DNA from: Euglena gracilis
Lineage: Eukaryota
NCBI GenBank assembly: GCA_039621445.1
Contig: CP154954.1
Span: forward strand, 37,619,703-37,683,702
Direction of reading: 5' to 3'
Length of the DNA stretch: 64,000 nucleotides
Every line of letters begins with the position of its first letter. Position 1 is the first letter of the stretch. Below the pieces are notes generated by a model. That model saw only the letters and a list, made by a program, of their open reading frames with translations, was not told the origin of the DNA and did no database searches. The position numbers were made by a program, and so were the translations under genes. This document shows positions 3,001-51,127 of the stretch, piece after piece.

Positions 3001-3389
3001 GCCCCCAGAAACGTCATTTTTCGGCCGTTTTCGGCCGAAATCGGCTGCGCCGGCGCTCCAAAAACGAGCGCTCTGCCCCGGCTAGAGGTCGGCGATCCTT
3101 TACCTAACTGTTGCGAAGGGCGGCGGGCGGATAGCCGCAATTTTGCCCGCGGCGGGCGTGCGTAAAACGCAGCCGTTACCGCCCGGGAGGCGCAAAATAG
3201 CACGTAAGTAACGGACGCCCCCAGAAACGTCATTTTTCGGCCGTTTTCGGCCGAAATCGGCTGCGCCGGCGCTCCAAAAACGAGCGCTCTGCCCCGGCTA
3301 GAGGTCGGCGATCCTTTACCTAACTGTTGCGAAGGGCGGCGGGCGGATAGCCGCAATTTTGCCGGAGAGAAAAAAGACAAAAAAAAAAG

Positions 3390-3433
<44 letters not shown>

Positions 3434-12400: not shown

Positions 12401-12985
12401 CTCTGCCCCGGCTAGAGGTCGGCGATCCTTTACCTAACTGTTGCGAAGGGCGGCGGGCGGATAGCCGCAATTTTGCCCGCGGCGGGCGTGCGTAAAACGC
12501 AGCTGTTACCACCGCCCGGGAGGCGCAAAATAGCACGTAAGTAACGGACGCCCCCAGAAACGTCATTTTTCGGCCGTTTTCGGCCGAAATCGGCTGCGCC
12601 GGCGCTCCAAAAGCGAGCGCTCTGCCCCGGCTAGAGGTCGGCGATCCTTTACCTAACTGTTGCGAAGGGCGGCGGGCGGATAGCCGCAATTTTGCCCGCG
12701 GCGGGCGTGCGTAAAACGCAGCCGTTACCGCCCGGGAGGCGCAAAATAGCACGTAAGTAACGGACGCCCCCACAAACGTCATTTTTCGGCCGTTTTTGGC
12801 CGAAATCGGCTGCGCCGGCGCTCCAAAAACGAGCGCTCTGCCCCGGCTAGAGGTCGGCGCTCCTTTACCTAACTGTTGCGAAGGGCGGCGGGCGGATAGC
12901 CGCAATTTTGCCCGCGGCGGGCGTGCGTAAAACGCAGCCGTTACCGCCCGGGAGGTACAAAATAGCACGTAAGTAACGGACGTCC
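1..12985. repeat. 216-bp GC-rich tandem satellite, left array (~60 monomers, near-identical)
   Basis: Sequence at 1 recurs at 217 and 1081 (5x216). Monomer GCCGTTTTCGGCCGAAATC...GAAACGTCATTTTTCG. The 72-aa periodic minus-strand ORFs are a by-product. Confidence 0.99.
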
Positions 12986-13390
12986 TGTGTACCAGGCACG
13001 TCCCAGCTCTGTAGGATATCTGCAGAGTGGGTTCTGTGACGGTCGCACCACTGTGGAAACCCACAGCTGGTAAGATCGTGGCAGACACTTCTGGGATCTG
13101 CCCCTGGACACCCCCACAGGTGGTATTCTTTACTCTCACAATCTCAAAGCTTGACCATTGGTTTTGTCAGAGGGAAAAACCCTCAGAACAATCGACTTTG
13201 ATCTCAGAAGAAACTTCTGAATCTTTGCTTTGTGCTTTGCTTCTTGGGGAATTGGGAAGAAAAGGGGAAAACCACTTTTCGTTACTCCAAAGACTTTTCC
13301 CTACCATAAGTAGGCTGCGCACCAAGGCGAAAGCGAAAGGCTTTTACAGAAAGTTCCAAAAAGGGGAAAAGGGAAAGCTTTGGACGTACA
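12986..13390 (+). repeat. 5' LTR of copy 1 (405 bp, TGTGTACC...GGACGTACA)
   Basis: The same start recurs at 29364 (after the PPT) and 53591. The same termini bound the sister-family LTR at 51128-51545. The PBS follows after CT. Confidence 0.9.
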
Positions 13391-13392
13391 CT

Positions 13393-13402
13393 TGGTAGCA
13401 GA
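13393..13402 (+). promoter_or_regulatory. Primer binding site TGGTAGCAGA (initiator tRNA-Met type); second copy at 13449-13458
   Basis: Lies 2 nt after the LTR CA. Complementary to ...UCUGCUACCA, the 3' end of many eukaryotic initiator tRNAs. Confidence 0.8.
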
Positions 13403-13702
13403 ATAGGTCAAAGATCCAACAGAAAGAAAGGCTACCAGGTAATACACTTGGTAGCAGATTTAGGCAACGAACCTACACAGACGTTCCACACAGAGAAACT
13501 CTGTGGTTGACTGGTGGTGAGGATCGTACTGAGCCGTGAAACACGGTGAAAGTACTGTTCCTGGCCCCTAGCCAACCTTTAAGCAAGGATACAGGTCTCA
13601 GAAGGCTCTGTTCGGTAATCGCCGATACAACCTTTCTGGTCCCTGTTTCTCTGCTTATTTGTGTGAATTTTTGGGTTTTTGCCTTTTTACCCATCTCAAA
13701 AG

Positions 13703-16700
13703 ATGCAGAGCACAAGCCCCAACCCCAAATTTGATTATGACTTGTTGATGAGTTCATTGAGCAATTGTGATGAAGATTGCGGGGATTGGAACGGTTTGAA
13801 TGAAACAAGTTCCAATTCCCGACCCCCCAAGCAAGAAGAAGGCAATTTGACTCATTTGTCATTGTCAAAAGGCGAAACGCCTTTATTATTGCATGGGGGT
13901 AATGAACCCTCTTCATCATCATTGTCATTGATTGTGCGGGATGTAGGTGGCAAAATGCCTTCCTCCATCCCGATTCACCCATCATTGATGCGGCGAGGGG
14001 ATGAACCCCTTGCCCCCTCACACTTGGTTACTCATGTTACCCATGAACAAAGTGAGGGGTATTTGCCCTTTGCTCTGTTCACACCCAAAAGATCCCCGGT
14101 GGAAGCACCGGTGGGCCTTTTGGAGTGCAACTCGGTGGAAACACCGTGTTTTTTCCAACCCCCCCTCAATTACCACCCCCCACACCATTTCACGCTTTGC
14201 CGGGATTACCCGCGGAAGCTGCGGTTTTCCCTGCATTGCCATGGAACCCAGATATGCGTCTGGTGGTGCCGGAAATCTCTGGTGCCGTTTCCATTGTGGA
14301 GGACTATGAGGAAGATTTGAGGGATAACCTCACCCCCGGTGATGTTTACCGAATTCTCGGTCAACTCCCAGCGGATCACCCGCTTAGCAAGCAAATTTTG
14401 CATGTCCACCAATGCGTTGCGGAATGCGCAACCATGCTCAACAAAGTTTTGCAGTTTGATGAGGACAATCAAAGGGTTGTCAACACCAAACTGGAATGTT
14501 GCTGGAATTATTTGCAGGAAATCGGCAAATATTGCCAACACAATTTTGAAAATGCGGGGAAAGACCTTCAGCATTTTCGAGAAAGTGTTGACAGTATTTT
14601 GCGCATCCAACTTCCACAAAATTTCCAACAAATCAGCGAAATGCTGCATGAAGCGGAAACGCGGAATGATTCCAAGTTTCTGCATGTGCAGGATGGTATG
14701 AGCCATCTTTTTGCCCAATTGGAATCCTGTTCAACCATGTTACTGCAGTTACAGCAGCAGCAGTTACAAGCGCAAAATGCCACCCCCAAAATGCCGGAAA
14801 TCGGTAACTTTGTCGCGGTTGAGCATTTTGCCGCACTTACCACTTCTTTCCAAGAAGCCCAACAACGGATTTTGCATCTTGGCTCGGAAATCGAGCACTT
14901 GAAGCAATTCCAGGCGAAAGTGCAAGAAAATTTTGTTCCCCGTACACAAATCCAGCTTTTGGAGGAACGAATTTCACACTTGGAGCAAAAATCCTGCCAT
15001 TGTGCCGCAAATCAGGATGGATTAACCACCTTGAACGCGAAAATCGCGGATTGCGCACAACGGTTGGATTTCACGCAACAACAAATGCAAACGGACATTG
15101 GCGGTATTAATGCCACCGTTGTCGGTTTGCAGGAGCATGTTTCTGCACTTTCCAAGCGAATTCCCGACATTAGTGGTATTCAAGCCGCTATTGGGGAATT
15201 GCAAACCCGTTGCACCTTGTTGTCCACCACAGTGACGGAAATCCGCTCACTACCCCCCATTTCGCGTGCTCGGATATCCGAGTCACCGGAATTTCGCTCA
15301 TTTTATGACAAAGTGCTTGGTGACAACAAGGAAACCTTGCAAGCATTTTGTACAAGTTTGCTCCAAATTGAGGAGGCGTGAACCGGAATGCCCGGTCCGT
15401 GCAAGATGAGGTTTCTCGGTTGGGTGGGAGAATTTCTAAGATGCTGGAAAATCCAACCGCGGAAAAGTCGCGCACCACCGTGGCATCCCCCACAAGTCAC
15501 TCCACCAATTGCAAACCGTCTCAAATGCGGTAGTAAAGCGCTTGCGGGTCAACTCCGGAATGTGGAGGAGTCCCAAGGAAATCTTGCCCAAGAATTACAC
15601 TTGGTTTCTGAAAAGTTGCCACACTTGGAAGATTTTTCCCGTTACCGCAAACGCATTAGGCATTTGGAGACTGAGGTTGACCGTATTTGCGGCCAACTCC
15701 AGTTGGTGGAACATTTGGAAGAAACGGTGCATGACTTGTCCGCGAGTTTGGATAAAATGTCCACTCCGATACCGGTTGTGCCACCATCCACCGCGGTAAG
15801 CGCTGCGGTTGGTATTCCAAATGTCCCGGAATCGCGTTCTCAAATTACCATTTCTGGAGTAGGAATCCCTACATCCACCGCGAATTTGGTACAACCACCC
15901 GCGAAAACGCGAATTGTACCACCTTTGCATTTGCCAACACCACAAACACACTCTTCGCACGACATTTCCGATGAGGAAATTGACCCCCACTCGAAAATTC
16001 GAGTCTCCACCAAGAAATTCAACATTCCAACCTTGTACGAGGAATGAGCCAACACCCCACACCTGGTATTGGTCATGTGTCGCAATCGCGATCATACCAA
16101 CAACCGACGGGTTCTGGAATGCCAGACCACCCATCGGGTTTTCGGCGGGAAACCCGCCACACTGAGAGGATTTCACCACATTTTTCGCAATTCCCGCAGG
16201 AAAATCCTGCCAACCTTACACTTGGTGCGGGAAATCCTGCACGGGTCAAACATGGAGCGGAAAATCCGCGAAACGCGTTTGGTGTTAAGAATTACCCTGA
16301 CCCAAACCCCTGGAATACCACCGAGGGTCAGCGGGTTACTCAGAGAGACTTCAAGGGCACCATCGCAATCGCGAACAAGGTGAAGCCCCAATGGGACGGG
16401 GATCCAACCACATGGAGACAATTTTTTCGGGACTGGGAGTACTATTGGGCACTAAAGGGACCCACCCAAGACCCGAATCCCGAGGTAGTCAAGATGGAAT
16501 TCATCGATTGCCTACCGAGGGAGGAGCGAGAACGCGCACGCAATTTGGTGATACGTAATGGCGTATCATTCGATGACCTGGTTGAGCAATACGCTTCAAC
16601 CAATTCAAGTCTGGTCACCAGGATTACCCTGGAGAAGAAGTGGCGACAATTCGCGCCATCTGATCGCAAATGGAAATCCATTGACCTTTGGTATGCCAAA

Positions 16701-17781
16701 TGGTTAGCACTTGCTTCCGAAGTTGATGAACTTAGCGAGAAGCAAATGCGCGAACAATTCGATGCGGTTTTGTTGCATTTCACACCATCCCTCGTGAAGG
16801 ATATCCATCGCGAGGAGTTGGCAGGGCATGAGATGACTCTTGCCCAACGTTGGAATTATGTGTCAAAGCAACTCAAGCTCACACAAGTTTTGGGACAAAT
16901 ACAGTCCGCTTTCCAAACGCATCCCACCGCGGGAATCCCTGCGGGTGCGGTTAATGCGTTGCAAAAATCACCCATGTCACCAAGATCACCCACCACGGGA
17001 TCGAAAACGCGGAATCAGCGTTCTTCGGACCAGGGCACGGATAAACTGTGCTTTTTGTGCAACAAATCTGGTCACATGTCTCGGGAATGCCCGAATCCCG
17101 ATGCGCGAAAGCGTATTGGAAGCCCAAGGGGCTCGACCTCCTCACGGGGATCGGGTTCCTCGGCGTTTTCACGTCAATCGGGAGTTTCACGGTCTTCGGA
17201 GAACCGCTTTAGCGGCAGTAGGCCCAAGTCACCATCGCGTGATGGTCGGGAAACCCGTCCTTCTCGCGGTCGGTCACCTGGCCCCCCCTGCCCGAAAACG
17301 GGATTTCAATCGCGATTCTTCACGATCTCGTTCGCGAAGTGGATCATCCTCTTCACGCGAGTCAACGGGGAAGTCCCGATACACCGGTCATGGTCGACGG
17401 GAAACCCGTTCACCACGACGGTTTGACGGAAAAACGGAATACCGTTCCCCCCGTTATGCGGAATCCCGCCACAAATCCCGTTGTTCACTTTGCGGTTCCA
17501 AAGATCACCACGCATCCAAATGTCCCAGATCTCGTTCCCCCCGGCCCGGCTACGGAAATCGCGGTAAGCGCCGCGATGACCGTGGTTACTCCTCCAACCG
17601 GCAAAAGGTCGGTTTCAAGATATCTTGTTTGGAGGAGGACACCCCGGCTTCGGGCAGGGAGGGGGATGAGACCTCGGATGGGGAATTTAATGAGGCCCGA
17701 ATGGCGGTGCGCTCATTGAATTCCATCTATTCCACCAAAAAGTCCGTTGCCGGCTATGCGGCCGGTTCGGACTTGGAGTAG
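13703..17781 (+). CDS. gag: Gag-like polyprotein (~1360 aa when joined; frameshifted in this copy): long coiled-coil N-region, capsid-like region, two CCHC zinc knuckles, RS-rich tail
   Basis: Pieces 13679-14320, 14125-15381, 15388-16047, 16044-17426, 16840-17781. CFLCNKSGHMSREC at 17049-17090 and CSLCGSKDHHASKC at 17482-17523. Copy 2 reads through the ~15375 and ~17290 breaks. Start codon uncertain. Confidence 0.82.
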
Positions 17782-17817
17782 GGGAGCCCGAGGTCCGAGG
17801 GCACGGACCTCTGGGCT
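17779..17817 (+). promoter_or_regulatory. Probable gag-pol stop-codon readthrough signal (UAG-G, 8-nt spacer, GC-rich stem-loop)
   Basis: The gag TAG is in frame with pol (15 open codons to ATG 17827). Stem GAGGTCCG/CGGACCTC at 17790-17811 can extend by AGCCC/GGGCT. Identical in copy 2 at 58351-58389. Confidence 0.7.
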
Positions 17818-20800
17818 GATGAACAGATGGAGGTAAGACCTGATCAACCTTACCCCCCCTGCCCATCTGCCTTCACGGTCAGTACCCGGAATTATTTCGG
17901 GTCCCCTACCACCTACTTCACATTTCCGCTCGGAATGCTGAGCAAAGAAGGAAAGGGTTCATGGGAGAGCTGGCATGCAAACGTATTTCCGCCAGACCCT
18001 TCACTTTGCGTACCACCAATGGAATTACTCGTCCAAGCGGAAATCCGCATTCAAAATTTCTCCACTAAAGTTAAAATTCTCATTGACACTGGTTGTCGCA
18101 TTGCACTGCTCTTTCGGTTGGGGTTGATACCGACCCCGCTCTTGGTAAGCGCCAAGAAACCGATCAAAATTACAACCGCGGATAACACCCCCATGTGTGG
18201 TGGTGATTTGGGATGTGTGCTCGAGATACTCTTGCCCATCATTCCGAAACATCACTCACAACCCCCACAAGTACAACATTTCACCAATATTTGGGGTTAC
18301 GAGTCCGGAATTCACGGGTCTGACGTAATTTTGGGATACCCATTTTTACGCCAGTACCGATTGGTTGTGGATTGCCACTCCCACGGTTTGCGCACAGCAC
18401 ACACCACTTCATTGACACCCAAACCACCATCACCGTTGTCATCCACTATGATGACCACCGCTTTGCCCACACCGTTATCCACAATGGCAACACCGTTACC
18501 CACCACACCAACAACCGTTTTCCACACCCGGGGTACGGAGAAAGCCTCCCCCCTGCCCAATGACACACCAACATGCGTTCCACATGAGGCAGGGCAAGCG
18601 AGTAGCGGTACCCCCGCCGTTCCACTGGGTTACAAGACGAAAGCCCAAAGGCCTGCAGTACGTACCGTGTCGAGTAGTCGCCCAGCTACACCACCACTCC
18701 GTTTCCCACCAGTTGTGCCGAATCCAGGCACACCTGTACAAGACTCACGGTCTAATGCCATCGACACCCACTTTCACGCACACCCGTCACACCATCACAC
18801 TTCCTTCCAATGTGTGCACTGCAGGAGAATTTCCACCCAATCGGATTTCGATTGTGGATGTTTAGTTCAAAATCCGACACTAATCACAATTCCGAATACG
18901 GAATACACACGCCATGATACACTTGGTTGTAGCCCGCAATGCGCGGAAATACACCGAGTACTCCAACAACGCGGATTAGCCTCGTTGTTCGGAACCGCGA
19001 AAAGCGCGATTCCTAATTACAATCGCGATCACACTTGGTACGGATTTGATGCGGAATGGGGAAACCCCCAACCTGTCCAAACTCCCTTGGGATTAACCCT
19101 TGAGGTAGTGGAAGACAACCCGCATGTTTGTGGATCCATTCATTGTGTTTCTTCACTCCAACCCGAAAATCGGGTGCATGAATACGCGAAACGCGTATGG
19201 AATGCTTTCAATTTTGGTCAATATCGCATTTTGGAACGATGGTTTTCCAAAATCGCGACATTGGCTGATTCTTTTGATTTGGCATTGGAAATCGATGCCT
19301 TCTCATCCAATGCACATGCCCGTTTGCCACGTCATTGGTCACAACACTCCAACGCATTTGATAAATTTTGGGGTGATACGGTGTTATGGATGCACCCTCC
19401 CCCAAAACTTATCGAATGTGCGGTTGAGAAAATTCTGCGGGATGAAGCCCGTGGAGTTATTCTCATACCCATCATTCCGGAAGCGGAATGGTTCACCCAA
19501 CTATCGTATGTATGTTTTCATTGGTGGGATTTACCCACTAATGTACCGATTTTTGAGGATTTTTGTGGTAAAATATTACCACCCTTGCAAGAAATCATTT
19601 TTCGCGTATGTTTCTTCGATGCATTCGGAATGTCCGAATTCGCGGTGCCGAGGAAGCTCGGTAGCCCCAGGGATACCCTGGTGGTTTCCGCAGTCATCGA
19701 GAGTGCAGGTCAGCATCCTAAGTCAGCCGAATTCTGTTCGCGGATTACCCGCGAATTCCACGGTGTGCTGGAAAATCCAGTATACGCGTGCGACATCGAC
19801 CCCGCGATACGCGGTCCGTTCGGTGTTTTGTAAGATCGAGCTTAAGGATGGAGCCAAGCCAATGCACCGGAAATTTTTTCGTTGTTCGGGAGAACGCGAA
19901 CAAGCTCTCAATGAAATGATTGAGAAGCTTATTCAGCGCAAGTGGATTGTACCCTCGAAAAGCGAGTGGACATCCCAGGCATTTGTTGTTCCTAAACCCC
20001 CAGACCCCTCAGGTCAGAAGAAATGGAGGCTGGTGCTGGATTACCGGTACCTGAACTCCCAAACAAGGGATGATCCCTTCCCGCTCCCCCTGATCGAGGA
20101 TTTGATCACCAAACAATCGGAAAACCGGTTGTGGTCAATTTTCGATCTGGAGGACGGTTTTCACCAAATGCACTTACACCCTGACTCCCAACCATACACG
20201 GCATTCGTGACATCCAAGGGTGTGTACCAATGGACGGTACTCCCCATGGGTGTTAAGAATGGCCCAGCCATGTTTCAGCGCATGATACAATGGGTTTTAC
20301 GCGACTTACCGTTTGCCATTGTGTACATTGATGATGTGCTGGTGGGAACACCACCACCATCCGCAAAATCGAGCGAGGATATCCTCGTCACACACTTCCA
20401 CCATGTTTGCGCGGTATTAACCGCTTTTCAAAAACATGTGCTTTTCGCGAAAGGCGCGAAAATGCATTTGTTTCGGATACTTATAAAATTTTGCGGTCAC
20501 ATCCTCAGCAATGGACAGCGGAAAGCCGCTCCGAGTAAACTCGAAGCCATTAAGAAATGGACCCCTGAGGTAATCAAAACGATTACTCACCTCAAAGGAT
20601 TTTTGGGATTAGCCCAATACTACGCGATTTATATGAAGGACTTCGCGGTGCCCCTCACCAAGCAGCTCAAAAACCGGGCTGTTGACAACACCAAAGTCAT
20701 TTGGGATGACCAAATGCGCGAGGCCCTTGAGAAAATCAAGGTTTTGCTTTTGGAGAATGTTGTCCTCGAAATCGCGGACCCGTACAAACCATACGTGTTG

Positions 20801-22872
20801 GAAGTCGACAGCAGCGATTACGCTGTTGGCGGAGTTCTTAGCCAGCATAATGCGGCGAATGAGCTCCGACCTGTGGCTTTCTTCAGCAGAAAGTTACAGG
20901 GCGACGATGGAAAAGGTCAAGTCAAATGGAGTATACGCGAGAAGGAAACCTACGCAATCGTGCTTATACTCCAGAAATTCCGAAGCTGGGTAGCCAGCAG
21001 CCTCGTCCAGATCCTCGTCAAGACCGACCATGAGAGTCTCCAACACTGGTACACCGAGGATTTGAACAAGGCCATGTCATCGGTCGGAAGGCGATGCAGA
21101 TGGCATGAGTTCTTGAGTCAATTCAACCTTGTGGTTATTTATACCCCTGGTCACACACAAAAAGTAGCGGATCCGCTCAGTCGGGCCCCTTGGTATTACC
21201 CTGGGAACCCGGATGAGGGAGACGCGACTTTTCATGGAAGTCAGGAAGCTGACGACTACGCACGTCGAAACGACGCTGCGGATAATCTTTTGGATTCTTT
21301 TCCCGTTTCACAACTATTCCTGGTCGCACCAGTGCGAGGAAGGCGCCGACGTGGAAGCACGTCCGGGCCCCGGCGTATTACGCGCACGGAGTCCCCTTCT
21401 CCACTGTTCTTTCGCGAATGGGATTATAGTCGTGATCCGGTGTATGACACCATTGTCACCAGACTTCGTAATGGCGAAGTGCTGGACAATTACACTCTTT
21501 CACCATTACGGTTGGTTTTCGCAATGAATCGGGTTACAAATATTGTATCCCCCAGGACCTGGTTGATGATGTGATTTTGTGTTATCACAACCATGGTCAC
21601 CCTGGGGCCCCCAAACTTCTTTCGTTGGTGGGCCGCAGGTACTGTACAACCCTGAGCGAGAAAGAGCTTTACTCACGCTGTTTGCGAATAGCGCAACGGT
21701 GTCAAATTTGTCAAGCGGTAAAACCCCGCAGAGGTACCCCCCCTGGTACGATGGACTTTTTCCCCGTACCCCCTGACATTTTTACATCCCTCTGCATGGA
21801 TTTTCTGGAATTAGAACCGTGCAAAGGAACAGACGACAAAATTTACGATTACGTTTTTGTTGTCGTCTGCAGGCTGAGTGGGTACATTGTAGCCATTCCA
21901 TGCCAGAAGTCAGGGTTGACTGCCCAAAGTTTGGCAACTATATTTTTGGAGAAATGCATTTGCTTGATGGGTTTACCGAATGAAATCGTGAGTGATCAAG
22001 ACCATTTGATTTCTTCAAGGTTTTTCACCACTTTGTGCGGTTTACTCGGAATCGAGCAACATTTTTCCATTATATACCGACCCAAAGGCAATGGTAGAGC
22101 CGAGGCAGCCGTGAAATCCGTCGTGAATATGCTTCGCCTTTCACTGGCTGACTCGCGCAGCAACTGGATATCAGTTCTACCATGGTCTTTGTTTTATATC
22201 AATACCCTACCAGGGTTGGTTTTACCTCACTCCCCCTATAAATTAGTTTTCGGACGGGACCCTCCGGCCATAGGGGATGTCCCTTCGGAGAGACCCGCCC
22301 GAACGAGTGTCAGTTGCGAGACCTGGTTTGCGGAAGTAGAAAATCTACGTTCTGCAGTCCAGAAGCGCGTGACTGATATTCATGCAGCAAAACGGAAATC
22401 GTTTTTGCAGAATTTCAAGTCACCTGTTTACAGTCCCGGTGACCGCGTGTGGGTACGGAATAGCCGTACTCGCATGCAGTCTTCCAAGCTGGACCCCCTC
22501 TGGCTCGGCCCCTGTGAAATCCTAGAAAGACTAGGTACCAGCGGGCGTTACAAGGTTGCATTACCGAATGGTGTTGAGGACGTTCATATGGACGACTTCA
22601 AACCATACCTGTCGCCACCGGATGGGAAACCCATCCCGTGTTTGCACTTCAAACCCCGTTCCAGATTACCTGAGACGGACGACTTTGTAGTCGATAAAAT
22701 TATCGATCACAAAATCGACAAAGGTATGCACCTTTGGAAGGTCCGCTGGAAAGGGTATGGGCCCGAGGAGGACACTTGGGAGCCAGCAACCAGTTTTGTT
22801 GGGTATGTCCAGCAAGATTGGAAGCTGTGGAACAAGAAACATAACATTGATGTTTCCATGACAAGTTTTTGA
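17782..22872 (+). CDS. pol: Pol polyprotein (~1700 aa; frameshifts near 19830 and 21520-21570): aspartic protease, adenine MTase-like domain, RT, RNase H, integrase, chromodomain
   Basis: LIDTG (DTG at 18085) and ILGYPFL; RT WRLVLDYRYLN, FDLEDGFHQ, LPMG, YIDD (20324); RNase H VDSSDYAVGGVL, EKETYAI, TDH, ADPLSR; IN H-H-C-C, MDF, SDQD, GRAE. Confidence 0.93.
19220..19620 (+). other. Dam-like (phage/DIRS-type) DNA N6-adenine methyltransferase domain within Pol
   Basis: LEIDAFSSNAHARLPRHWS...NAFDKFWGDTVLWMHPPPKLIECAVEKILRDEARGVILIPIIPEAEWF matches the DxFAS...N...DAF...W...(N)PP..LI..(V)L.K......LVVP.....W pattern. Motif IV reads HPPP. Confidence 0.75.
22684..22850 (+). other. Chromodomain at integrase C-terminus
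   Basis: FVVDKIIDHKIDKGMHLWKVRWKGYGPEEDTWEP with aromatic cage-type residues F/W/Y. Confidence 0.93.
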
Positions 22873-22894
22873 GAACGCATGGGAAACCCATGTT

Positions 22895-22943
22895 GTTTTC
22901 TCTTCTTTTTATCATTGATTCTTATCATTCTTTCTTTCCGCAG
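22895..22943 (+). promoter_or_regulatory. Putative splice acceptor (polypyrimidine tract + CAG) upstream of ORF3
   Basis: TTTTCTCTTCTTTTT...TTCTTTCTTTCCGCAG ending ~90 nt before ATG 23035. The AG-proximal part is conserved in copies 2 and 3. Confidence 0.6.
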
Positions 22944-23034
22944 ACTTTTTACCAAATAATACTCAAGCGGTTACCCTCACACACCTTACAACAAACAACC
23001 CAAACATCCCACCGTACCGACCCCGGGCTGTCAT

Positions 23035-26000
23035 ATGCTGCCCGGCGGAAGGGAGCCAGGCGGAGGACCGCCTTACCACCCCACCACTCACCCTCAACCT
23101 GACCAGTATGCGTACCGATACGGTACGCAGCCACCTGCACGGACTGCGGCTCAGGGAAACCCTGAAGCCAGCAGCAGTAGCAGGATGACCCAGATGCCCG
23201 CGGAAGCGCGGCCATCTCAGCCATCAGGCTCTCGTCGCCTCCCACCGTATGCGGGTGTGATGATCCACCGCACGGCGGAGACGATGAACCGGGTTATGCG
23301 TATGAGCGCAAACCCGGCACCAGACCAACTCACACAGGCATTGTGGGATGACCACTGCCGTAAAGTTTTGACCATCGCGAATACCCCTCCAGCCCTGTGG
23401 TGTATGTGCGCCCAGGCGACGATGACCGGTCTGGTGTATTACACCGACCCGGACGCGTCGGGATTCGCGGCAGACATTACCATGCGTGACCTGGGCGTGG
23501 AAGTCCCGCCACAGGTCGCCAGGCAGGTACCACCTGTTGGCACTTACACTGCACATTTTCGTGCTCACTCCCCCGGATTACCCGAGGAAGAGACGGTGGA
23601 AGCACCTGTCCGGAGTGAACACCCACGTGTAAAAGAAAGTATTTTTCGATCCCCTGAGCGCATGCCCCGGCGGGATTATCCTGCGCAGGAGCCTGTGTCT
23701 CAGTATACCGTCTCTGGGGATTACCCCAGCAGGCGCCAATGCCACGGGATCAGTACGTATATCCACCTCAACCCCACCCAACCATACCTGACCCTATCCC
23801 ACGACGTCCTGCGGAGGGAAATCCTCCCCCGACGTCTGACTCTGCCCGAAGCGCTCGTCCGCGGGAAGCCGCGACAGCGCCTCGTGCGGCACCAGTTCCC
23901 CCGGCACGGGATGAACCCGTTAACCCGTGGACTGGTCGGCCGTTCGAGACTGAGGAGGACCGTCAACAGTATGAATATGCTGTGACGATCCAACGACAAA
24001 TCGCACGTCGCCCCCCTGTTTCCGCTGGCCAGGGATACCCTGCCCGGGCGGAAATGACACGGGAAGAGCGCCAGCAGTATGATGCTGCTGTGTCGGCTCT
24101 CACAGGAGTCCCAGCTCCATCACGGTTAAGTCAACCAGCGCGACAGCGGGACGTGGCTGTGGCGGAAGCGCCACCAGCACGACCCACAAGCTCTGCCGCC
24201 GGCAAACGTGACCGCGGCCCGGAAAATCTGACGCCGCAGCCACAACGCCGCTCGCCGAGGTCGGAAAATCCGCCCGCGGCGATGCGCGTCGACGCTGAGG
24301 AGGAAGCTCCGCCAGCGCCCGACGTGACGGCAGAACGGGCACGTCGGGAAACCCGACCATCCCCAGTCGCACCGGTTTACTCGAATCGTGGTGATGCTGA
24401 GCAGGAATTTGCTCGAACACCAAGCACGGAATCCGTGACTTATCCTGTGTATACAGAAGAAGACCCAGAATACTGGGAATATTGGGACCCATATCGGGCG
24501 ACGATAGAATGGCTGTCCAACACGAAGGGCAAGGGTAAAGGAAAAGGCAAGGGTAAGGGTAAAGGTAAAGGCCAGGAGAAAGGTGGGAAAGCCCCATCTG
24601 GGAAAGGCGGAAAACCCGCTGGACCACCTCCAGGCAAAGGCGGAAAATCTGCCGGACCCCCAGCAGGAAAAGGCGGAAAAGCCGCCGAACCTTCGAAAAC
24701 GAAGGATTACGACGCTGACCAGCTGTTCGATTACTTGGATGAAATCTGGCCGAAAATCGACCAGGATCTCGAAAAGTACACGCGTGCTGGCAACGTGATC
24801 CACCGACCACCGGAAGCGGTGCTCGCAGTGGTGCAGGATCGTATGCACGATCACTGCAAACGATTCATCTACAGTACCGAACTTCATCCGTTTGAGGGAT
24901 ACCCTCATTCGGATGAAATGGTCCTGGACCAGATGTCTGGTTTCTGGGAACTCTGGTTCTGGTTGGGATATCCCTGCCAGAACTTTGGCATTTTCACCGA
25001 CCGAAACGGTCTGACATACATCGATTGTTTGAACACATGTGAAGACGATGAAACATTCGTAGCACAGTTGAAGGAAATCTTCAACCACATGTATTCCGTC
25101 AGCGCACTGGGAATCCAGTGGAAATATTACCCCCTGCCGGAGAAACTCCAGGCGCAGGCGGTAACGTTCACAAACAACCTCCAAGTATTCTTGGACAGCA
25201 TGTATGGCATGCTGTTCAAGGTACTGGACGTGGACCTCGCCTACCCTCAACGATACAAACTGGAATGCCGGTTTTGCAAGGAAGTCCACATTGTTGACTT
25301 CTGGGGTTTCGGGGAGCGCGGAAAACCGCCTCCGACTGCCGAGAATGCCGGCAGCCCACCGACCAGGAGATTCCTCCTGCATCAGTGCCGGAAACCCCAG
25401 ATCGGAACGCAAGACCGGAAGGTGCTGAAACAGCACCGGCAGAAAATATTTCTGCTCCAACAATACTGGCACAGGGCGTGGATTACCTACGTCCTGGAAG
25501 TATATATATATTTCCTGGAGCAGATGACCACCGATGTGGATATCCACAGGAAGTGGATACCTCGGGGATACACCGAGGTAGATGCCAGACCGTATGATCC
25601 AGACCGACGCAGGATAAACCTGCGGCCGGACTGGACGGGGGCAGAAATCGGCCTCCGGGAACACCTGCAGAGCCAGTTCGGGGAAATCCTGGACTGGCAG
25701 GAGTTCGAAGTGTTCTTCGCTCCCCGCGAGCTAAGCCAACCTCGCTACGCAGTACCACTGCCAGCTTTCCTGGAAGAAACGGGAGAGTATGGTATGGGTG
25801 AGGCCCGTCGATCGCAGTGGGAAGACCTCTGCCTGATCAACGAGGATGAGCCTCAACCTCCACCCGGAAGCTGGGTGCGAGCGTCGTGGCCACCTCCATA
25901 CCCCAACTCTGACAGGAGTGAAAGTATTAGCTTTTTCCGCCTGTCAAATGCCCAAGGGTGCTACAGAAGCAGGGAAGACCCGCGTTCTGCAGCCCAACTA

Positions 26001-27973
26001 CACACAGAGGAGTCCCCTCTGGAAGCGGAGGAGACAGGAGAAGCGGTCCCAATGGCCGAGGATGAACCTCAGCCTGCGGAACCCCCGGCACGGGAAACCC
26101 GTAGCCCGTCGGTCGTGATGCTGGACACTGTGGCGGAAACCGCCCAGCGCCCAGGATCACCGAGAGGTGAACTGACGCCTGTCCCACTGTCACCATCCTC
26201 GCTGGGTACGCCTGGCGGACCGACCCCTCCGCGGGAAAACCCGCCGGAGACGGTAACCCCTACGCCTGAGGTATTACGCCTCAAGCTTCCTGTCCCCGGG
26301 GAAATCCCGACGACAGAGGAGCCAGTGGAGGAGCCCACTTCAGGGGAAGGACCTGAACGGCGCCCCTCACTGGGCGGACGTGTACTCGGTGGTTTGCGAT
26401 CACTGATCGCAGTTGTCACCCCACGTGGCACTGCGGCTAGTTCTTCCACTGCTGTGGCGGAAACGGCCCAGCCAGACGACGAAACAACTGAAGCTGCAGC
26501 CATGGAGGAGGATGAACCTCCCCCAATGGCCGCGCCACCGCCGGTGTCGGAAACGACACGGACGGAGGACGAACCAACGGCAATGTCAGTGGTGGCAACG
26601 CTACCCGTGCCAGTGCAGGATGAACCCACATTAGCACCGGTAGCGGGATCAGAGGCACGGGATGAGCCCGTACCTCCACAACAGCGGTCACTGCACCAAA
26701 GCGTGCGGGCACACGGACACCGGCACCTGAAAAACAGGCTGCACGGACATCCATGCCCCCACCACAGACTCCGCCAACGCGAAGTGCAGCGGCGACGCCC
26801 ACACCAACACCATCCTCCACGACTGCTCCTGGGAAACCCACGAGCGCAGCGAAGGAACGCGTAGGGCGACCCTCAGCTCGGGAAACCCCTGCTGAAGGTC
26901 AACGACGCTCGGTGTCGGGGAAAAGACCCCCGGCCCAGCCGTCACCACGCACCTGGTCAAGCAAGCGTGACGCCGAACGGCGACCCTCGGATGCTCCGGA
27001 AAGCGGAAGTCCGAAGGCCCCGGCCAAATCAAAGCCCGGTGCCGCGCCTTGCAAACCCTCACCTAAACCAGCTGATCAGCCCCCCCCGAAAGGCGGTGGT
27101 GGTGCTGGAGGCCAGGGTGCATCTTCTTCTCGAGGATTAGCCTCGGGAGGAGGATTCACACAGGTCACATCATCCGGCTATGGGAAAACCTCACAGCCGA
27201 AACCACCTACGAAGGGGCAGGGAAAATCCCGCGCCTCTACGACTACGACACCTTCGGAAGGCGAAGTTGTCATCGACTGGAATGCGATGACTCAGGATGA
27301 TCCTGAGACTCATGACCTGAAAAACAGGTACATGATGATCGAACACAAGCTGCGAACAGACCAATGCCTCAATCGGTGGATTGAACCACTGTTCTGTCAA
27401 GGACGGAAATGGTCCTTTGACCAGAATGTCACCTGGAATTATTACAATTCCAGATCACCACGTGTTTTGGCCCAATACTTTGGCGAGGAATTCCTCGTCG
27501 ACAGAACATCGGAAAACCGATTTGTGTGGCTCTGCACTGTTTGCCACAGGATGTACAACAGTGCCCCTGACTTGGGATTACCCCTCGTCCATGTGTGCAA
27601 CCCTGTGGAGCGGAAATCGTTCCACAAGGATATGTACATACCCAACTGTGCCGCCTTGGTATGCGCCAAGTGCGTGGACAGTTGGACCCACAAGCACAAT
27701 TTTTGCTACACGGAACGAGATGGTACGAATGTACCAGTACTCTGCGTCAACTGCCTGCGAGGTACCTTCTGGCACACTGCGGAAGGCGCAGTTCGCACAA
27801 TCGTGCCGAGTGCCGAGAAGCCACTGGAGGAATACTCCACCTTGAACAAAAAGTTCAAGGACTTATTCAAGTATGCCAACCTCAAGCTCGACGACTACCG
27901 CACACGGGAATGGCCCGTGGGTGGCAGATCGACAGTGGGGCGATACGCCTCGCTGCTGAGGAAGCAGGGGTAA
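23035..27973 (+). CDS. Accessory ORF3 of unknown function (~1650 aa when joined): Pro-rich regions, KG/GKGGK repeats, aromatic-rich globular domain, Cys-rich finger
   Basis: Pieces 23035-23985, 23739-26864, 26753-27973. Copy 3 reads through the ~23730 break. Substitutions between copies are largely conservative. Confidence 0.8.
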
Positions 27974-28473
27974 GATTACCTTACCTCTGGGAGACAGCGG
28001 ACAGGGAAAAGATACTTTTCCGCCTGTTCACAACCCAGGACCGAAACGGTCGCTGGTGCCTACCACAATGGCCACCCGAAAAACACGGGATGACCTGGAA
28101 GGACTGGCTAGGGGCCGTATTGCGACCCCATACAGTCCGGGCGGAATGCGCCTATCACGTTCCCATCGACTTCCACCCGGGGAATGCCCCGCAGGTGTCA
28201 GCCAATCACCCTCGGAGAAACTACTTCATCTGGCCAGCGACTTTGCCCAGGAAATTCTGGGAGAAGCTGCAGTGGTTTCTCGCGGAAAGAGCGAGTGCCA
28301 CCAAGCAGACAGTACCCGAAGGATGGGTTCGGGACTGGATCGCACCTGATTTCGACTACGACTCGCCAGAAACCTGGCTTGTCGACAGGCCACAGCCACC
28401 ACAATTCCAGATGGTCCTTGTGGAAGATCCCTTGGACTCCCGCCATGACTATTGGCGGCTGGAGCGGATGTAA
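27970..28473 (+). CDS. Trp-rich coding segment, probably the frameshifted C-terminus of ORF3 or a separate small ORF
   Basis: Open frame VRLPYLWETADREK...DYWRLERM continuing directly from the ORF3 stop at a GGGG run; protein-like composition. Confidence 0.5.
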   Translation, partial: VRLPYLWETADREKILFRLFTTQDRNGRWCLPQWPPEKHGMTWKDWLGAVLRPHTVRAECAYHVPIDFHPGNAPQVSANHPRRNYFIWPATLPRKFWEKLQWFLAERASATKQTVPEGWVRDWIAPDFDYDSPETWLVDRPQPPQFQMVLVEDPLDSRHDYWRLERM

Positions 28474-29353
28474 TGCCGAAACGGCATTACCAAGCCCATG
28501 TAAGGTAAGCGCCTTCATGGAGCTCATACATCCATATATATATACACTGGAAGCGGAAATCGCTAAACAGCCCTGGGATGAACCTGGGTCTGTGTCCCTC
28601 AGCGCTCTGGATGGAAGCATCCAAGAGCCCCCCCCCCCCTGCCAACCCATTATACCAGTGACCATGCGGACGGAAACCGTCTGCGGGAGGTAATCGCCTC
28701 TTATTGCGTCGTGAAGGAGCTACTGCTGTGAAGACCTTGGCAGCCGGGAAGCCTGGCAAGCCGCTAAGTGACACACAGCACACAGCGCGCACGCCGTAAT
28801 AATAGGCCAACTTGTCACTTTTCGGCCCTAAGGCCTCTTAAGGCTGCCAGACAGCAAAAATTCTGTCCTGGCCTAAGCCAGCCCAGCCCCCCTCTCCTCC
28901 CTACTTTCCCCCCACCCCCGCAAAGCTGTCGCCAGCAGTCGGTTTTGTAAGTAGGCTTTTGTTTCCTAGTGCGGATATGACCGCTTAGGAGCTCTATCCG
29001 GGTATGACCAGGATAGGAGCCTGCCCCCCCCTTCCACACATCTCCCCGCAGGTTTTCAGCGAATCGCTTGACCAACCCCGCGTGCCTTTGGCACACCCAA
29101 AGCGGGTGGATGGGACACTTTGTCAGGACACCTGCCAAGCCCCGTTTCCCACAGTGGGCTTTTTCACACCCCGCCTAAGCCGAAACGGCTAATAGGTAAC
29201 CGCGAAATGCGGCGCGTTTTTGGGCTTTGGGTGGATGCCACTGTGCGGAAAGGAGAGACACCGAATGGAGAAGTGAACCCCACCTGGGGCAGCGGCAGAT
29301 ATCCTGACTGGACTGGGAATCCCTGGTCCATGAAGTAAATCGGGCGTAGCCCT

Positions 29354-29363
29354 GGGAGGGGGA
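29354..29363 (+). promoter_or_regulatory. Polypurine tract GGGAGGGGGA
   Basis: Immediately 5' of the 3' LTR start TGTGTACC. Sister family has GGGAGGGGG at the same position. Confidence 0.88.
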
Positions 29364-29562
29364 TGTGTACCAGGCACGTCCCTGCTCTGTAGGATATCTG
29401 CAGAGTGGGTTACAAGGAATTGGGAGGAAAAAAGAAGGACGCCCCCGAAAACACTTTCGTTACCCAAATTTTCTCGCTCCAAAAAGGCGCTTGCAGAGGT
29501 CGGCGATCCTTTACCTAAGGCGAAGATAGGCTTTTACAGAAAGTCCCCGGGAAAAAGGGAAA
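29364..29562 (+). repeat. 3' LTR of copy 1, partial and interleaved with satellite sequence
   Basis: 29364-29411 matches the 5' LTR start with one mismatch. Later LTR words (GGAATTGGGA, AGGCTTTTACAGAAAGT) alternate with satellite words. Confidence 0.75.
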
Positions 29563-32500
29563 AATAGCACGTAAGTGACGGACGCCCCCAGAAACGTCAT
29601 TGTTCGGCCGTTTTCGGGCCGTTTTCGGCCGAAATCGGCTGCGCCGGCGCTCCAAAAAACGTCAAGGTCGGCGATCCTTTACCTAACTGTTTGCGGCCGA
29701 GATAGCCGAAATGCCCGCGGCGGGCGGGCGTAAAAACGTACGGGAGGCGCAAAATAGCACGTAAGTAACGGACGCAGAAACGTCATTTTTCGGGCGTTTT
29801 CTGCCGAAATCTGCTGCGCCGGCCCTCCAAAAACGAGCGCTCTGCCCCGGCTAGAGGTCGGCGCTTCTTTACCTAACTGTTGCGAAGGGCGGCGGGCGGA
29901 TAGCCGCAATTTTGCCCGCGGCGGGCGGGCGTAAAACGCAGCCGTTACCGCCCGGGAGGCGCAAAATAGCACGTAAGTAACGGACGCCCCCAGAAACGTC
30001 ATTTTTCGGCCGTTTTCGGCCGAAATCGGCTGCGCCGGCGCTCCAAAAACGAGCGCTCTGCCCCGGCTAGAGGTCGGCGATCCTTTACCTAACTGTTGCG
30101 AAGGGCGGCGGGCGGATAGCCGCAATTTTGCCCGCGGCGGGCGTGCGTAAAACGCAGCCGTTACCGCCCGGGAGGCGCAAAATAGCACGTAAGTAACGGA
30201 CGCCCCCAGAAACGTCATTTTTCGGCCGTTTTCGGCCGAAATCGGCTGCGCCGGCGCTCCAAAAACGAGCGCTCTGCCCCGGCTAGAGGTCGGCGATCCT
30301 TTACCTAACTGTTGCGAAGGGCGGCGGGCGGATAGCCGCAATTTTGCCCGCGGCGGGCGTGCGTAAAACGCAGCCGTTACCGCCCGGGAGGCGCAAAATA
30401 GCACGTAAGTAACGGACGCCCCCAGAAACGTCATTTTTCGGCCGTTTTTGGCCGAAATCGGCTGCGCCGGCGCTCCAAAAACGAGCGCTCTGCCCCGGCT
30501 AGAGGTCGGCGATCCTTTACCTAACTGTTGCGAAGGGCGGCGGGCGGATAGCCGCAATTTTGCCCGCGGCGGGCGTGCGTAAAACGCAGCCGTTACCGCC
30601 CGGGAGGCGCAAAATAGCACGTAAGTAACGGACGCCCCCAGAAACGTCATTTTTCGGCCGTTTTCGGCCGAAATCGGCTGCGCCGGCGCTCCAAAAACGA
30701 GCGCTCTGCCCCGGCTAGAGGTCGGCTCTCCTTTACCTAACTGTTGCGAAGGGCGGCGGGCGGATAGCCGCAATTTTGCCCGCGGCGGGCGTGCGTAAAA
30801 CGCAGCCGTTACCGCCCGGGAGGCGCAAAATAGCACGTAAGTAACGGACGCCCCCAGAAACGTCATTTTTCGGCCGTTTTCGGCCGAAATCGGCTGCGCC
30901 GGCGCTCCAAAAACGAGCGCTCTGCCCCGGCTAGAGGTCGGCGATCCTTTACCTAACTGTTGCGAAGGGCGGCGGGCGGATAGCCGCAATTTTGCCCGCG
31001 GCGGGCGTGCGTAAAACGCAGCCGTTACCGCCCGGGAGGCGCAAAATAGCACGTAAGTAACGGACGCCCCCAGAAACGTCATTTTTCGGCCGCTGCGCCG
31101 GCGCTCCAAAAACGAGCGCTCTGCCCCGGCTAGAGGTCGGCGCTTCTCTACCTAACCCTTGCGAAGGGCGGCGGGCGGATAGCCGCAATTTTGCCCGCGG
31201 CGGGCGTGCGTAAAACGCAGCCGTTACCGCCCGGGAGGCGCAAAATAGCACGTAAGTAACGGACGCCCCCAGAAACGTCATTTTTCGGCCGTTTTCGGCC
31301 GAAATCGGCTGCGCCGGCGCTCCAAAAACGAGCGCTCTGCCCCGGCTAGAGGTCGGCGATCCTTTACCTAACTGTTGCGAAGGGCGGCGGGCGGATAGCC
31401 GCAATTTTGCCCGCGGCGGGCGTGCGTAAAACGCAGCCGTTACCGCCCGGGAGGCGCAAAATAGCACGTAAGTAACGGACGCCCCAGAAACGTCATTTTC
31501 GGCCGTTTTCGGCCGAAATCGGCTGCGCCGGCGCTCCAAAAACGAGCGCTCTGCCCCGGCTAGAGGTCGGCGCTCCTTTACCTAACTGTTGCGAAGGGCG
31601 GCGGGCGGATAGCCGCAATTTTGCCCGCGGCGGGCGTGCGTAAAACGCAGCCGTTACCGCCCGGGAGGCGCAAAATAGCACGTAAGTAACGGACGCCCCC
31701 AGAACCGTCATTTTTCGGCCGTTTTCGGCCGAAATCGGCTGCGCCGGCGCTCCAAAAACGAGCGCTCTGCCCCGGCTAGAGGTCGGCGCTCCTTTACCTA
31801 ACTGTTGCGAAGGGCGGCGGGCGGATAGCCGCAATTTTGCCCGCGGCGGGCGTGCGTAAAACGCAGCCGTTACCGCCCGGGAGGCGCAAAATAGCACGTA
31901 AGTAACGGACGCCCCCAGAAACGTCATTTTTCGGCCGTTTTCGGCCGAAATCGGCTGCGCCGGCGCTCCAAAAACGAGCGCTCTGCCCCGGCTAGAGGTC
32001 GGCGCTCCTTTACCTAACTGTTGCGAAGGGCGGCGGGCGGATAGCCGCAATTTTGCCCGCGGCGGGCGTGCGTAAAACGCAGCCGTTACCGCCCGGGAGG
32101 CGCAAAATAGCACGTAAGTAACGGACGCCCCCAGAAACGTCATTTTTCGGCCGTTTTCGGCCGAAATCGGCTGCGCCGGCGCTCCAAAAACGAGCGCTCT
32201 GCCCCGGCTAGAGGTCGGCGCTCCTTTACCTAACTGTTGCGAAGGGCGGCGGGCGGATAGCCGCAATTTTGCCCGCGGCGGGCGTGCGTAAAACGCAGCC
32301 GTTACCGCCCGGGAGGCGCAAAATAGCACGTAAGTAACGGACGCCCCCAGAAACGTCATTTTTCGGCCGTTTTCGGCCGAAATCGGCTGCGCCGGCGCTC
32401 CAAAAACGAGCGCTCTGCCCCGGCTAGAGGTCGGCGATCCTTTACCTAACTGTTGCGAAGGGCGGCGGGCGGATAGCCGCAATTTTGCCCGCGGCGGGCG

Positions 32501-49900: not shown

Positions 49901-51119
49901 GGAGGCGACGAGAGCCTGATGGCTGAGATGGCCGCGCTTCCGCGGGCATCTGGGTCATCCTGCTACTGCTGCTGGCTTCAGGGTGTCCCTCAGCCGCAGT
50001 CCGTGCAGGTGGCTGCGTACCATATCGGTACGCATACTGGTCAGGTCGAGGGTGAGTGGTGGGGTGGTAAGGCGGTCCTCCGCCTGGCTCACTTCCACCG
50101 GGCAGCATGATACCGCCCGGGGTTGGTACGGTGGGATGGTTGGGTTTTTGGTTGTAAGTTGGTAAGGGTAACCGCTTGAGTATGATTTGATAAAAAGTCT
50201 GCGGAAAGAAAGAATGATCAGAATTCATGATAAAAAGAAGAGAAATCAACATGGGTTTCCCATGCGTTCTGAAAAACTTGTCATGGAAACATTAATGTTA
50301 TGATTCTTGTTCCACAGCTTCCAATCTTGCTGGACGGACGCAACAAAACTGGTTGCTGGCTCCCAAGTGCCCTCCTCGGGCCCATACCCTTTCCAGAGGA
50401 CCTTCCAAAGGTGCATACCTTTGTCGATTTTGTGATCGACAATTTTAACAACTACAAAGTCGTCCGTCTCAAGTATTCTGGAATGGGGTTTGAAGTGCAG
50501 ACACGGGATGGGTTTCCCATCCGGTGGCGACAGGTATGGTTTGAAGTCGTCCATATGAACGTCCTCAACTCCATTCGGTAATGCAACCTTGTAACGCCCG
50601 CTTGTACCTAGTCATTCTAGGATTTCACAGGGGCCGAGCCAGAGGGGGTCCAGCTTGGAAGACTGCATGCGAGTGCGGCTATTCCGCACCAACACGCGGT
50701 CACCGGGACTGTACGCAGATGACTTGAAATTCTGCAAAAACGATTCCCGTTTAGTTGCATGAGTATCAGTCACGCGCTCCTGGACTGCAGAACGTGGATT
50801 TTCTACCTCCGCAAACCAGGTCACGCAACTGACACTCGTTCGGGCGGGTCTCTCCGAAGGGACATCCCCTATGGCCGGAGGGTCCCGTCCGAAAACTAAC
50901 TTATAGGGGGAGTGAGGTAAAAGCAACCCTGGTAGGGTATTGATATAAAACAAGGACCATGGTAGCACTGATATCCAGTTGCTGCACGAGTCAGCCAGTG
51001 AAAGGCGAAGCATATTCACGACGGATTTCACGGCTGCCTCGGCTCTACCATGGAAAAATGTTGCTCAATTACGAGTAAACCGCACAAAGTGGTGAAAAGA
51101 CCTTGAAGAAATCAAATGG
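46999..51119 (-). mobile_element. Truncated copy 3 of the retrotransposon: integrase C-half, chromodomain and 5' ~60% of ORF3 (equivalent to ~22002-26154)
   Basis: ORFs 50612-51031, 50246-50554, 48642-50252 and 47277-48221 are homologous to copy 1; in-frame stops present. Confidence 0.95.
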
Positions 51120-51127
51120 ACTGGAAG

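Follow-up and report, generated by a model that had tools for sequence, protein, structure and literature searches.

A satellite-resident, defective copy of what is very probably an abundant DAM-LTR-type chromovirus with a long third open reading frame in Euglena gracilis

What is the DNA that interrupts a homogeneous 216-bp satellite array in Euglena gracilis (contig CP154954.1), and how might it engage the chromatin in which it lies? The window, i.e., the whole stretch of 64,000 nt that was analyzed (GenBank assembly GCA_039621445.1, positions 37,619,703 to 37,683,702 of the forward strand), contains a 16.6-kb insert between two satellite blocks, and the GC content (~53%) and composition of this insert are unlike those of the satellite (GC 62%, CpG observed/expected 1.5). 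We consider it very probable that the locus is a defective copy (copy 1) of a very abundant family of Ty3/gypsy chromoviruses of the DAM-LTR type, i.e., long terminal repeat (LTR) retroelements with a Dam-like domain in pol. The element occupies 12986-29560 on the + strand, its first letters being TGTGTACC at 12986, and its parts are ordered Gag, protease (PR), Dam-like domain, reverse transcriptase (RT), RNase H (RH), integrase (IN), chromodomain, and a long third open reading frame (ORF3). Its extra length comes from three additions: a coiled-coil half of Gag, a spacer between PR and RT that holds a Cys cluster and a methyltransferase fold, and ORF3 itself. A sequence-only reading of the window had proposed a gypsy-order element of ~16.6 kb inside a homogeneous satellite, with further copies at the array edge, an adenine-methyltransferase-like domain, an integrase chromodomain, a readthrough-type gag-pol junction, and an extra ORF of ~1700 aa. 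Each of these features was recovered, the further copies being partial and lying at the right edge of the array, and the extra ORF measuring ~1,800 aa. The setting is as follows.

1-12982: left block of the 216-bp satellite (TRF period 216, 97-99% matches)
12986-29560, + strand: the element (copy 1)
29561-29740: degenerate satellite monomer (~79% identity for 29561-29800)
29741-46998: right block of the 216-bp satellite (TRF; 95-99% matches over both blocks)
46999-51125, - strand: copy 3, with IN, chromodomain, and part of ORF3 (element positions 21996-26153; 89.4% identity, 4,164 nt)
53591-64000, + strand: copy 2, from the 5' LTR to early ORF3, running off the window

Pol of the element is ~1,700 aa long and, from Pfam matches and translations, reads PR, Cys cluster, Dam-like domain, RT, RNase H, IN, SH3, and chromodomain.

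17782-22872, + strand: Pol, ~1,700 aa, with two breaks in copy 1
18811-18861, + strand: C-x2-C-x10-C-x-C cluster, read from the translation, 5' of the Dam-like domain
19180-19830, + strand: Dam-like methyltransferase-fold domain between PR and RT, with motif IV HPPP at 19393-19404
19991-21124, + strand: RT and RNase H (RVT_1 1.1e-24, RT_RNaseH 3.3e-23, RT_RNaseH_2 4.5e-24)
21547-22593, + strand: integrase with H2C2 zinc finger, DDE core, and Tf2-type SH3 (Pfam)
22684-22791, + strand: chromodomain at the IN C-terminus (Pfam Chromo 2.2e-10)

The order PR-RT-RNase H-IN, with a chromodomain at the integrase C-terminus, is that of a Ty3/gypsy chromovirus. The protease DTG motif (at 18085) and the RT YIDD motif were both read from the translations, and within the integrase region the Pfam E-values were 1.1e-6 for Integrase_H2C2, 1.7e-10 for rve, and 4.2e-7 for SH3_Tf2-1, with Chromo following the latter two. 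Ratios of non-synonymous to synonymous change (dN/dS) were low in these domains, i.e., 0.26 for RT and RNase H and 0.21 for IN and chromodomain. The same Pol order occurs in an environmental protein of 1,677 aa (P0152), which is 75% identical to the element over RT-RH, 67% over IN-chromodomain, and 35% over PR-DAM; P0152 and a second protein, P0153 (1,991 aa), end in a chromodomain as well. A P/T/S-rich linker between the protease and the Dam-like domain holds the Cys cluster, the motif of which is kept in copy 2 and recurs with the same spacing in P0152, although the latter is only 35% identical in the region. The cluster may be a zinc-binding module paired with the Dam-like domain. No similarity was found among the element's own proteins.

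The Dam-like domain is a member of a retroelement-borne DAM family. A search of 1.84 billion representative proteins returned 332 homologues at E<=1e-3 (98 at <=1e-10 and 10 at <=1e-30), the best matches being 45-50% identical. Twenty-three longer relatives (8+5+10), picked by length from the 150 of 332 matches listed and from cluster members, were scanned for domains. In the set of eight, RVT_1 was found in six and a Dam match at E<=1e-3 in seven, three of them above the Pfam cut-off, while nine of a further ten had a Dam match and two carried the copia-type RVT_2; PF05869 was matched by 27 of the 32 aligned family members. Most of the relatives scanned are retroelement polyproteins of the DAM-RT-RH-IN(-Chromo) kind, as in the DAM-LTR lineage. 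An AF2 model built from the 32-member alignment had a pLDDT of 89.3, and its top Foldseek match was CAPAM, the cap-specific adenosine N6-methyltransferase (E 6.6e-5). VIA, which is independent of Foldseek, gave Z values of 10.9 for CAPAM (rmsd 2.6, 127 residues), 8.3 for T4 Dam, 8.0 for E. coli Dam, and 7.8 for M.TaqI. The modeled domain has the class I S-adenosylmethionine (SAM) methyltransferase fold of the N6-adenine type. A search of the ESM Atlas with the Dam-like part yielded only leads below 0.9.

Whether this fold is still that of an enzyme is a point on which an alternative has to be weighed. The family consensus at motif IV is LW-x-NPPF, whereas the element reads LWMHPPP in copies 1 and 2, so that His replaces the catalytic Asn. 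Among the 130 of the 150 matches listed that cover this column, N occurs in 86, H in 28, C in 10, and other residues in 6, and His is common to the nearest relatives, i.e., P0014 (72% identical), which has HPPP, and P0152, which has HPMF. The domain could nonetheless be an active adenine methyltransferase that places N6-methyladenine (6mA) on element cDNA or DNA and so keeps its chromatin permissive. In favor of this are the confidently modeled fold, nearest to N6-adenine enzymes, the retention of the near-invariant columns of the family alignment (D39, F41, W64, L69, W70, P73, P74, and K84), and the occurrence of His in 28 of 130 relatives, so that it may be tolerated; raised 6mA has also been reported on DAM-LTRs in three species, according to the available text of a preprint (bioRxiv 10.64898/2026.05.21.726589). 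Against it, the motif is HPPP instead of NPP followed by an aromatic residue, the nearest clade is more eroded still (HPMF in P0152), and identity over PR-DAM is low against 67-75% over RT and IN. Moreover, the same preprint text describes eukaryotic DAMs expressed in E. coli without a rise in 6mA, and the element is located in satellite rather than in permissive chromatin. Considering both sides, we regard an active enzyme as possible but unlikely. Substitution of HPP for Asn-Pro-Pro makes methyltransferase activity doubtful, and in the His clade, where the domain evolves much faster than RT and IN, it retains the fold and is probably not a standard adenine methyltransferase. We consider a nucleic-acid- or SAM-binding module more likely than an efficient 6mA writer.

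The sequence-only reading had it that the element reads chromatin, marks DNA, and may counter silencing. For the first of these the chromodomain provides grounds: its best matches among PDB sequences were MPP8 (2.3e-9), HP1, and Clr4, and its F, W, and Y align with identical residues of MPP8, which we take to be the methyl-lysine aromatic cage. It is plausible, then, that a chromodomain with a complete HP1/MPP8-type cage reads chromatin. The second fared less well, since membership in the DAM family and the methyltransferase fold stand beside a His at the catalytic Asn, and marking of DNA is doubtful. As to silencing, ORF3 is a real and constrained gene to which no function could be assigned.

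The family is very abundant. Fourteen DNA runs of one organism contained 79-84% of the words sampled from 19000-28500, and one leaf-litter metatranscriptome contained 29%. Contig pieces of four runs (X1, X15, X16, and X17) were placed along the element at a 90% likeness threshold; DNA run X1 alone contributed 137,634 pieces, and 30 of 30 bins were covered in all four. In the leaf-litter metatranscriptome library X17, contigs covered 30 of 30 bins as well, which is no proof of expression because DNA may be present. Copy 1 is defective, with about seven frame breaks in gag, pol, and ORF3. Inside five of its frame-change intervals (two in gag, one from PR-DAM to RT, one from RT-RH to IN, and the last ORF3 junction), other copies showed single-base length differences. 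At the PR-DAM/RT interval these made up 35% of X1 depth and 100% in X15, X16, and X17; at the RT/IN interval they made up 43% of X1 depth, all in X15 and X17, and half in X16. Since the other copies differ in length at these places, the frame breaks are specific to copy 1, and the genome probably has long open frames at other loci. The neighboring copies are themselves damaged. Copy 3 is cut inside ORF3 exactly where the satellite ends. Copy 2 has a 2.1-kb inversion (54954-57080) through gag, the breakpoints of which show ~19 nt of filler but lack inverted repeats, and is without element positions 19435-20160 (near ~60004) and thus without the RT N-terminus. Since the inversion cuts gag, it must be derived.

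The last of the three additions, ORF3, is a real gene under purifying selection.

22960-28473, + strand: ORF3, ~1,800 aa, first ATG at 23035, four frames in copy 1

Its product begins with a P-rich N-terminus, after which come a KG/GKGGK run (24522-24692) and an aromatic-rich core (~24690-25900). An acidic P/E/T stretch follows, then a basic S/T/P/K stretch, and the last parts are a Cys/His cluster (27530-27772) and a C-terminal domain. By segment composition, disordered stretches alternate with aromatic-rich blocks. Between copies 1 and 3, dN/dS in four segments was 0.36, 0.49, 0.25, and 0.26, vs. 0.93-2.46 in the two off-frames, and against copy 2 it was 0.29. In copy 3, the first two ORF3 pieces form one frame of ~1,000 codons with two stops, and the 4.1 kb shared by copies 1 and 3 contain only 7 indels at 10% divergence. 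Relatives are almost absent: the only one found, among proteins of 237-755 aa, is a fragment 82% identical to ORF3 (P0155). Searches for homologues of the core (in proteins of 587-1,869 aa) and of the Cys-rich part (in proteins of 239-762 aa) yielded none, a Pfam scan of ORF3 no family, and a search of the ESM Atlas with the core no usable match. Scans of metagenome loci gave 577 pattern sites for alignment A4 and 23 for the ORF3 core, of which none was confirmed, and they are uninformative on ORF3 in relatives. No membrane segment was found, the top 19-residue hydropathy being 0.53-1.16 across the pieces, and ORF3 is therefore not of the env type. Because of its disordered basic and acidic stretches, KG/GKGGK run, Cys/His cluster, and lack of a membrane segment, we suggest, with low confidence, that the product is most likely a nuclear accessory protein binding nucleic acid or chromatin. 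The KG run resembles the tail of histone H4 and the basic stretch that of H1, a likeness in low-complexity sequence that does not amount to a test. It would be a considerable step further to see in the element a three-part chromatin kit for satellite heterochromatin, in which the chromodomain targets, the Dam-derived domain acts as a binder or hybrid-specific enzyme, and ORF3 works on chromatin as a histone-tail mimic or anti-silencing factor through its H4-tail-like GKGGK, H1-like basic S/P/K, and zinc cluster; we think this improbable.

ORF3 might instead belong to a separate mobile element, or be a host gene that was captured, lying within an otherwise ordinary chromovirus and foreign to the genome of the family. 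No ORF3 homologue was found in the related polyproteins, GC is higher in ORF3 (58%) than in gag-pol (50%), and ORF3 has about half the summed X1 depth of gag-pol. In addition, synonymous divergence between copies 1 and 3, which is ~0.1 over IN and the first part of ORF3, jumps to ~0.45 in the core (24500-25960 vs. 47200-48650, - strand), with dN/dS still ~0.25. However, each of the three copies spanning the junction has pol and ORF3 in collinear order, no internal repeats or extra LTRs were found within 12986-29560, the polypurine tract and the start of the 3' LTR come after ORF3, and ORF3 lies on the same strand under purifying selection. Any capture of ORF3 would predate the amplification of the family. 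The halved depth could reflect divergence beyond the 90% threshold or copies without ORF3, and the jump in divergence suggests mosaic or recombinant subfamilies or old polymorphism. We therefore judge a composite origin of this kind to be very unlikely. That ORF3 is no gene at all, only a set of frames that happen to be open where a GC-rich 3' region is decaying, is scarcely credible, for although it is spread over four frames in copy 1, is largely low-complexity, and has no family, fold, or Atlas match, its dN/dS of 0.25-0.49 in frame (0.29 against copy 2), the ~1,000 codons in one frame of copy 3, the few indels, and an independent predicted protein 82% identical to it all argue otherwise.

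To return to the reading of the locus as a DAM-LTR-type chromovirus, the 5' part of the element encodes a long Gag and leads into the gag-pol junction.

14254-17781, + strand: Gag, ~1,170 aa if continuous, four frames in copy 1
17779-17817, + strand: TAG (17779-17781) and candidate readthrough hairpin, with Gag and Pol in one frame

Gag consists of a coiled-coil-rich N-terminal half (~580 aa) followed by a capsid-like part with two CCHC knuckles (Pfam zf-CCHC, E 2.4e-5). Its open pieces in copy 1 are 14056-15381, 15382-16047, 15984-17426, and 16837-17781, of which the second and third form a single frame in copy 2. In frame, dN/dS was 0.26 for the N-terminal half and 0.34 for the capsid-like part; off frame it was 0.87-2.2. 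The TAG at the end of gag is followed, 4 nt downstream, by a 13-bp bulged hairpin, and its 90-nt context is identical in copies 1 and 2. The predicted fold of 17770-17870 (101 nt) has an energy of -46.5 kcal/mol (z -3.33), and none of 200 shuffles was as stable. The junction thus fits stop-codon readthrough. Gammaretroviruses have the same layout, with Gag and Pol in the same frame on either side of one UAG and with G-rich sequence and a stable structure downstream; here the predicted structure is a hairpin rather than a pseudoknot, and copies 1 and 2, being identical in this stretch, can show no covariation. A variant genetic code was considered for the TAG, the sole in-frame stop between conserved domains, and set aside because its position coincides with the border of gag and pol and the remaining breaks shift the frame. 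In the leader, a 205-aa frame (ORF0, 13703-14320) is open in copies 1 and 2; it was rejected as a gene, with a dN/dS of 1.17 over 20 changes.

The ends of the element are less complete than its coding part.

12986-13390, + strand: 5' LTR, 405 bp, TG...CA, starting TGTGTACC and ending GTACA
13393-13402, + strand: candidate primer-binding site TGGTAGCAGA, 2 nt past the LTR, read from the sequence
29354-29363, + strand: polypurine tract GGGAGGGGGA, directly 5' of the 3' LTR start, where the second TGTGTACC stands
29364-29560, + strand: 3' LTR remnant, with 48 nt of LTR (29364-29411) followed by an LTR-like/satellite-like mosaic

The first 405 bp were taken as an LTR because they align over their full length with the start of copy 2 (53591), and TGGTAGCAGA would match a tRNA 3' end. 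At the other end, 29364-29411 is 98% identical to 12986-13033 over 48 nt, and the rest of the 405-bp LTR is unmatched. The mosaic that follows (29412-29560, ~150 nt) contains a 24-nt exact piece of satellite at 29495-29518 and a 16-nt satellite-like piece, and each of the two junctions (12985/12986 and 29560/29561) has a repeat of ~27 nt of satellite. Such a pattern points to recombination with the satellite array or to template switching. With the 3' LTR rearranged in this way, a target-site duplication cannot be delimited. As to repeats near the start of the element, the candidate primer-binding site and its surroundings (13391-13461) occur twice in copy 1, ~52 nt apart, and only once in copy 2, with TGG altered. 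We also considered the satellite as a derivative of the LTR and ruled this out, as neither copy 1 nor copy 2 has a significant satellite match in its 5' LTR and satellite pieces are confined to the rearranged 3' end of the element.

How might such an element have come to lie here? Its transcript would begin in the 5' LTR, and a tRNA at TGGTAGCAGA would prime reverse transcription. Occasional readthrough of the TAG, aided by the downstream hairpin, would yield Gag-Pol, the Dam-like domain of which descends from the retroelement DAM lineage. The HP1-like chromodomain could then tether the integrase to heterochromatin methylated at lysine 9 of histone H3, and such tethering would account both for the insertion into satellite and for the pile-up of copies at the satellite edge. 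CpG in the element is at 0.9-1.0 of expectation, i.e., there is no depletion.

Several results weigh against this picture or parts of it. The two LTRs comprise one of 405 bp and a 48-nt remnant, and the primer-binding site and polypurine tract come from reading the sequence only; with neither an intact LTR pair nor a target-site duplication, a clean integration event is not demonstrated. Heterochromatin targeting is proposed from one insertion and one truncated neighbor, and the element is assigned to the chromoviruses by its domain order and chromodomain. The Dam-like domain of copy 1 scored 19.6, 21.5, and 22.2 bits against PF05869, below the cut-off of 28.1, and its profile had no match among PDB sequences at E<=1. 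Its dN/dS between copies 1 and 2 was 0.67 (8 synonymous and 20 non-synonymous changes), indistinguishable from the off-frames (0.73-0.82). Structure prediction, which the sequence-only reading had recommended for each ORF, served the Dam-like domain well (pLDDT 89.3) and the ORF3 core poorly: from a 4-row alignment its model had a pLDDT of 32.7, and any function for ORF3 is thus conjectural. The X1 depth over ORF3, half that over gag-pol, belongs here too.

Elements of this general kind have already been described. DAM-LTRs, including DAM-chromoviruses and "epigenetic toolkits", were first defined in May 2026 (bioRxiv 10.64898/2026.05.21.726589), and according to the text available, the 10,030 eukaryotic DAM proteins reported there reside mostly in DIRS and Ty3/gypsy-like elements. 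Five DAM-LTR lineages are distinguished, one of them a chlorophyte 'DAM-chromovirus-like' clade, and those with an added DNMT are termed 'EpiLTRs'. In the same source, raised 6mA on copies and a host AMT1 are DAM-LTR traits, and 6mA is proposed to keep chromatin permissive. Like our element, such DAM-LTRs, especially the 'DAM-chromovirus-like' clade and the EpiLTRs, combine, in the preprint text, a Ty3/gypsy-like pol with a prokaryote-derived Dam-like domain and a chromodomain. They differ from it in that an Asn-Pro-Pro triplet followed by an aromatic residue is described there as conserved, where the element has HPP. It is not an EpiLTR either, as no DNMT was among the Pfam matches of the ORFs scanned. 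In the preprint text available, no mention was found of an ORF of ~1,800 aa, of so long a Gag (~1,170 aa), or of a 16.6-kb element, and the terms 'fungi', 'protease', and 'additional ORF' are absent from its main text (bioRxiv 10.64898/2026.05.21.726589). In the part of the literature covered, nothing further was found on adenine methyltransferases in LTR elements. The suggestion that the element might belong to an undescribed lineage is accordingly reduced: the kind is known, and what appears new, relative to the available text, is ORF3, the giant Gag, the His variant, and the size.

Further comparisons can be drawn. DIRS1-group elements with a methyltransferase domain, as far as our sources describe them, share the Dam-like lineage within a retroelement polyprotein but have a tyrosine recombinase and carry the domain after RNase H, whereas our element has a DDE integrase, LTRs, and the domain between PR and RT. 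In P0134 and P0144, among the relatives scanned, a Dam-like domain stands beside a copia-type RVT_2, with the order IN (rve), DAM, RT in P0134. Chromoviruses in centromeric satellites have a large literature. Plant CRM and fungal MAGGY resemble the element in having a chromodomain at the integrase C-terminus and in lying in or beside satellite arrays. Chromoviruses of the CRM/MAGGY type are much shorter and are not known to carry a methyltransferase-like domain or a large ORF3, and the CRM chromodomain is of a degenerate type, in contrast to the full aromatic cage found here. Giant Ty3/gypsy elements of well over 10 kb, with extra ORFs of unclear function, are known as Ogre, Tat, and Athila; these are non-chromovirus plant lineages whose extra ORFs are env-like or placed elsewhere, whereas ORF3 has no membrane segment and almost no detectable relatives.

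What is new is thus the combination of a constrained ORF3, a very long Gag, the His variant, a full-cage chromodomain, residence in satellite at very high copy number, and a size of 16.6 kb. The role of the Dam-like domain is still open in the field, and a clade with His for Asn and the fold kept is a test case for enzyme vs. binder. ORF3, constrained and almost without detectable relatives, is a candidate for a new retroelement function. The chromatin setting is also defined, through a full-cage chromodomain, satellite residence, and very high copy number. The element is therefore relevant to how mobile elements handle host chromatin, and it founds no new class.

Some features of the window lie outside the element. 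No tRNA genes or Rfam families were found in the window. Between copies 3 and 2, a stretch on the - strand (51499-52205) shares 64% identity with the untranslated 3' end of the element and the beginning of its LTR; it has the appearance of a tail left by a more distantly related family member, and the next 1.4 kb (52206-53590) has no match in the element. In the left array (1-12982), TRF also reported a 432-bp period, i.e., two monomers, with 91% matches, which hints at a dimeric higher-order repeat.

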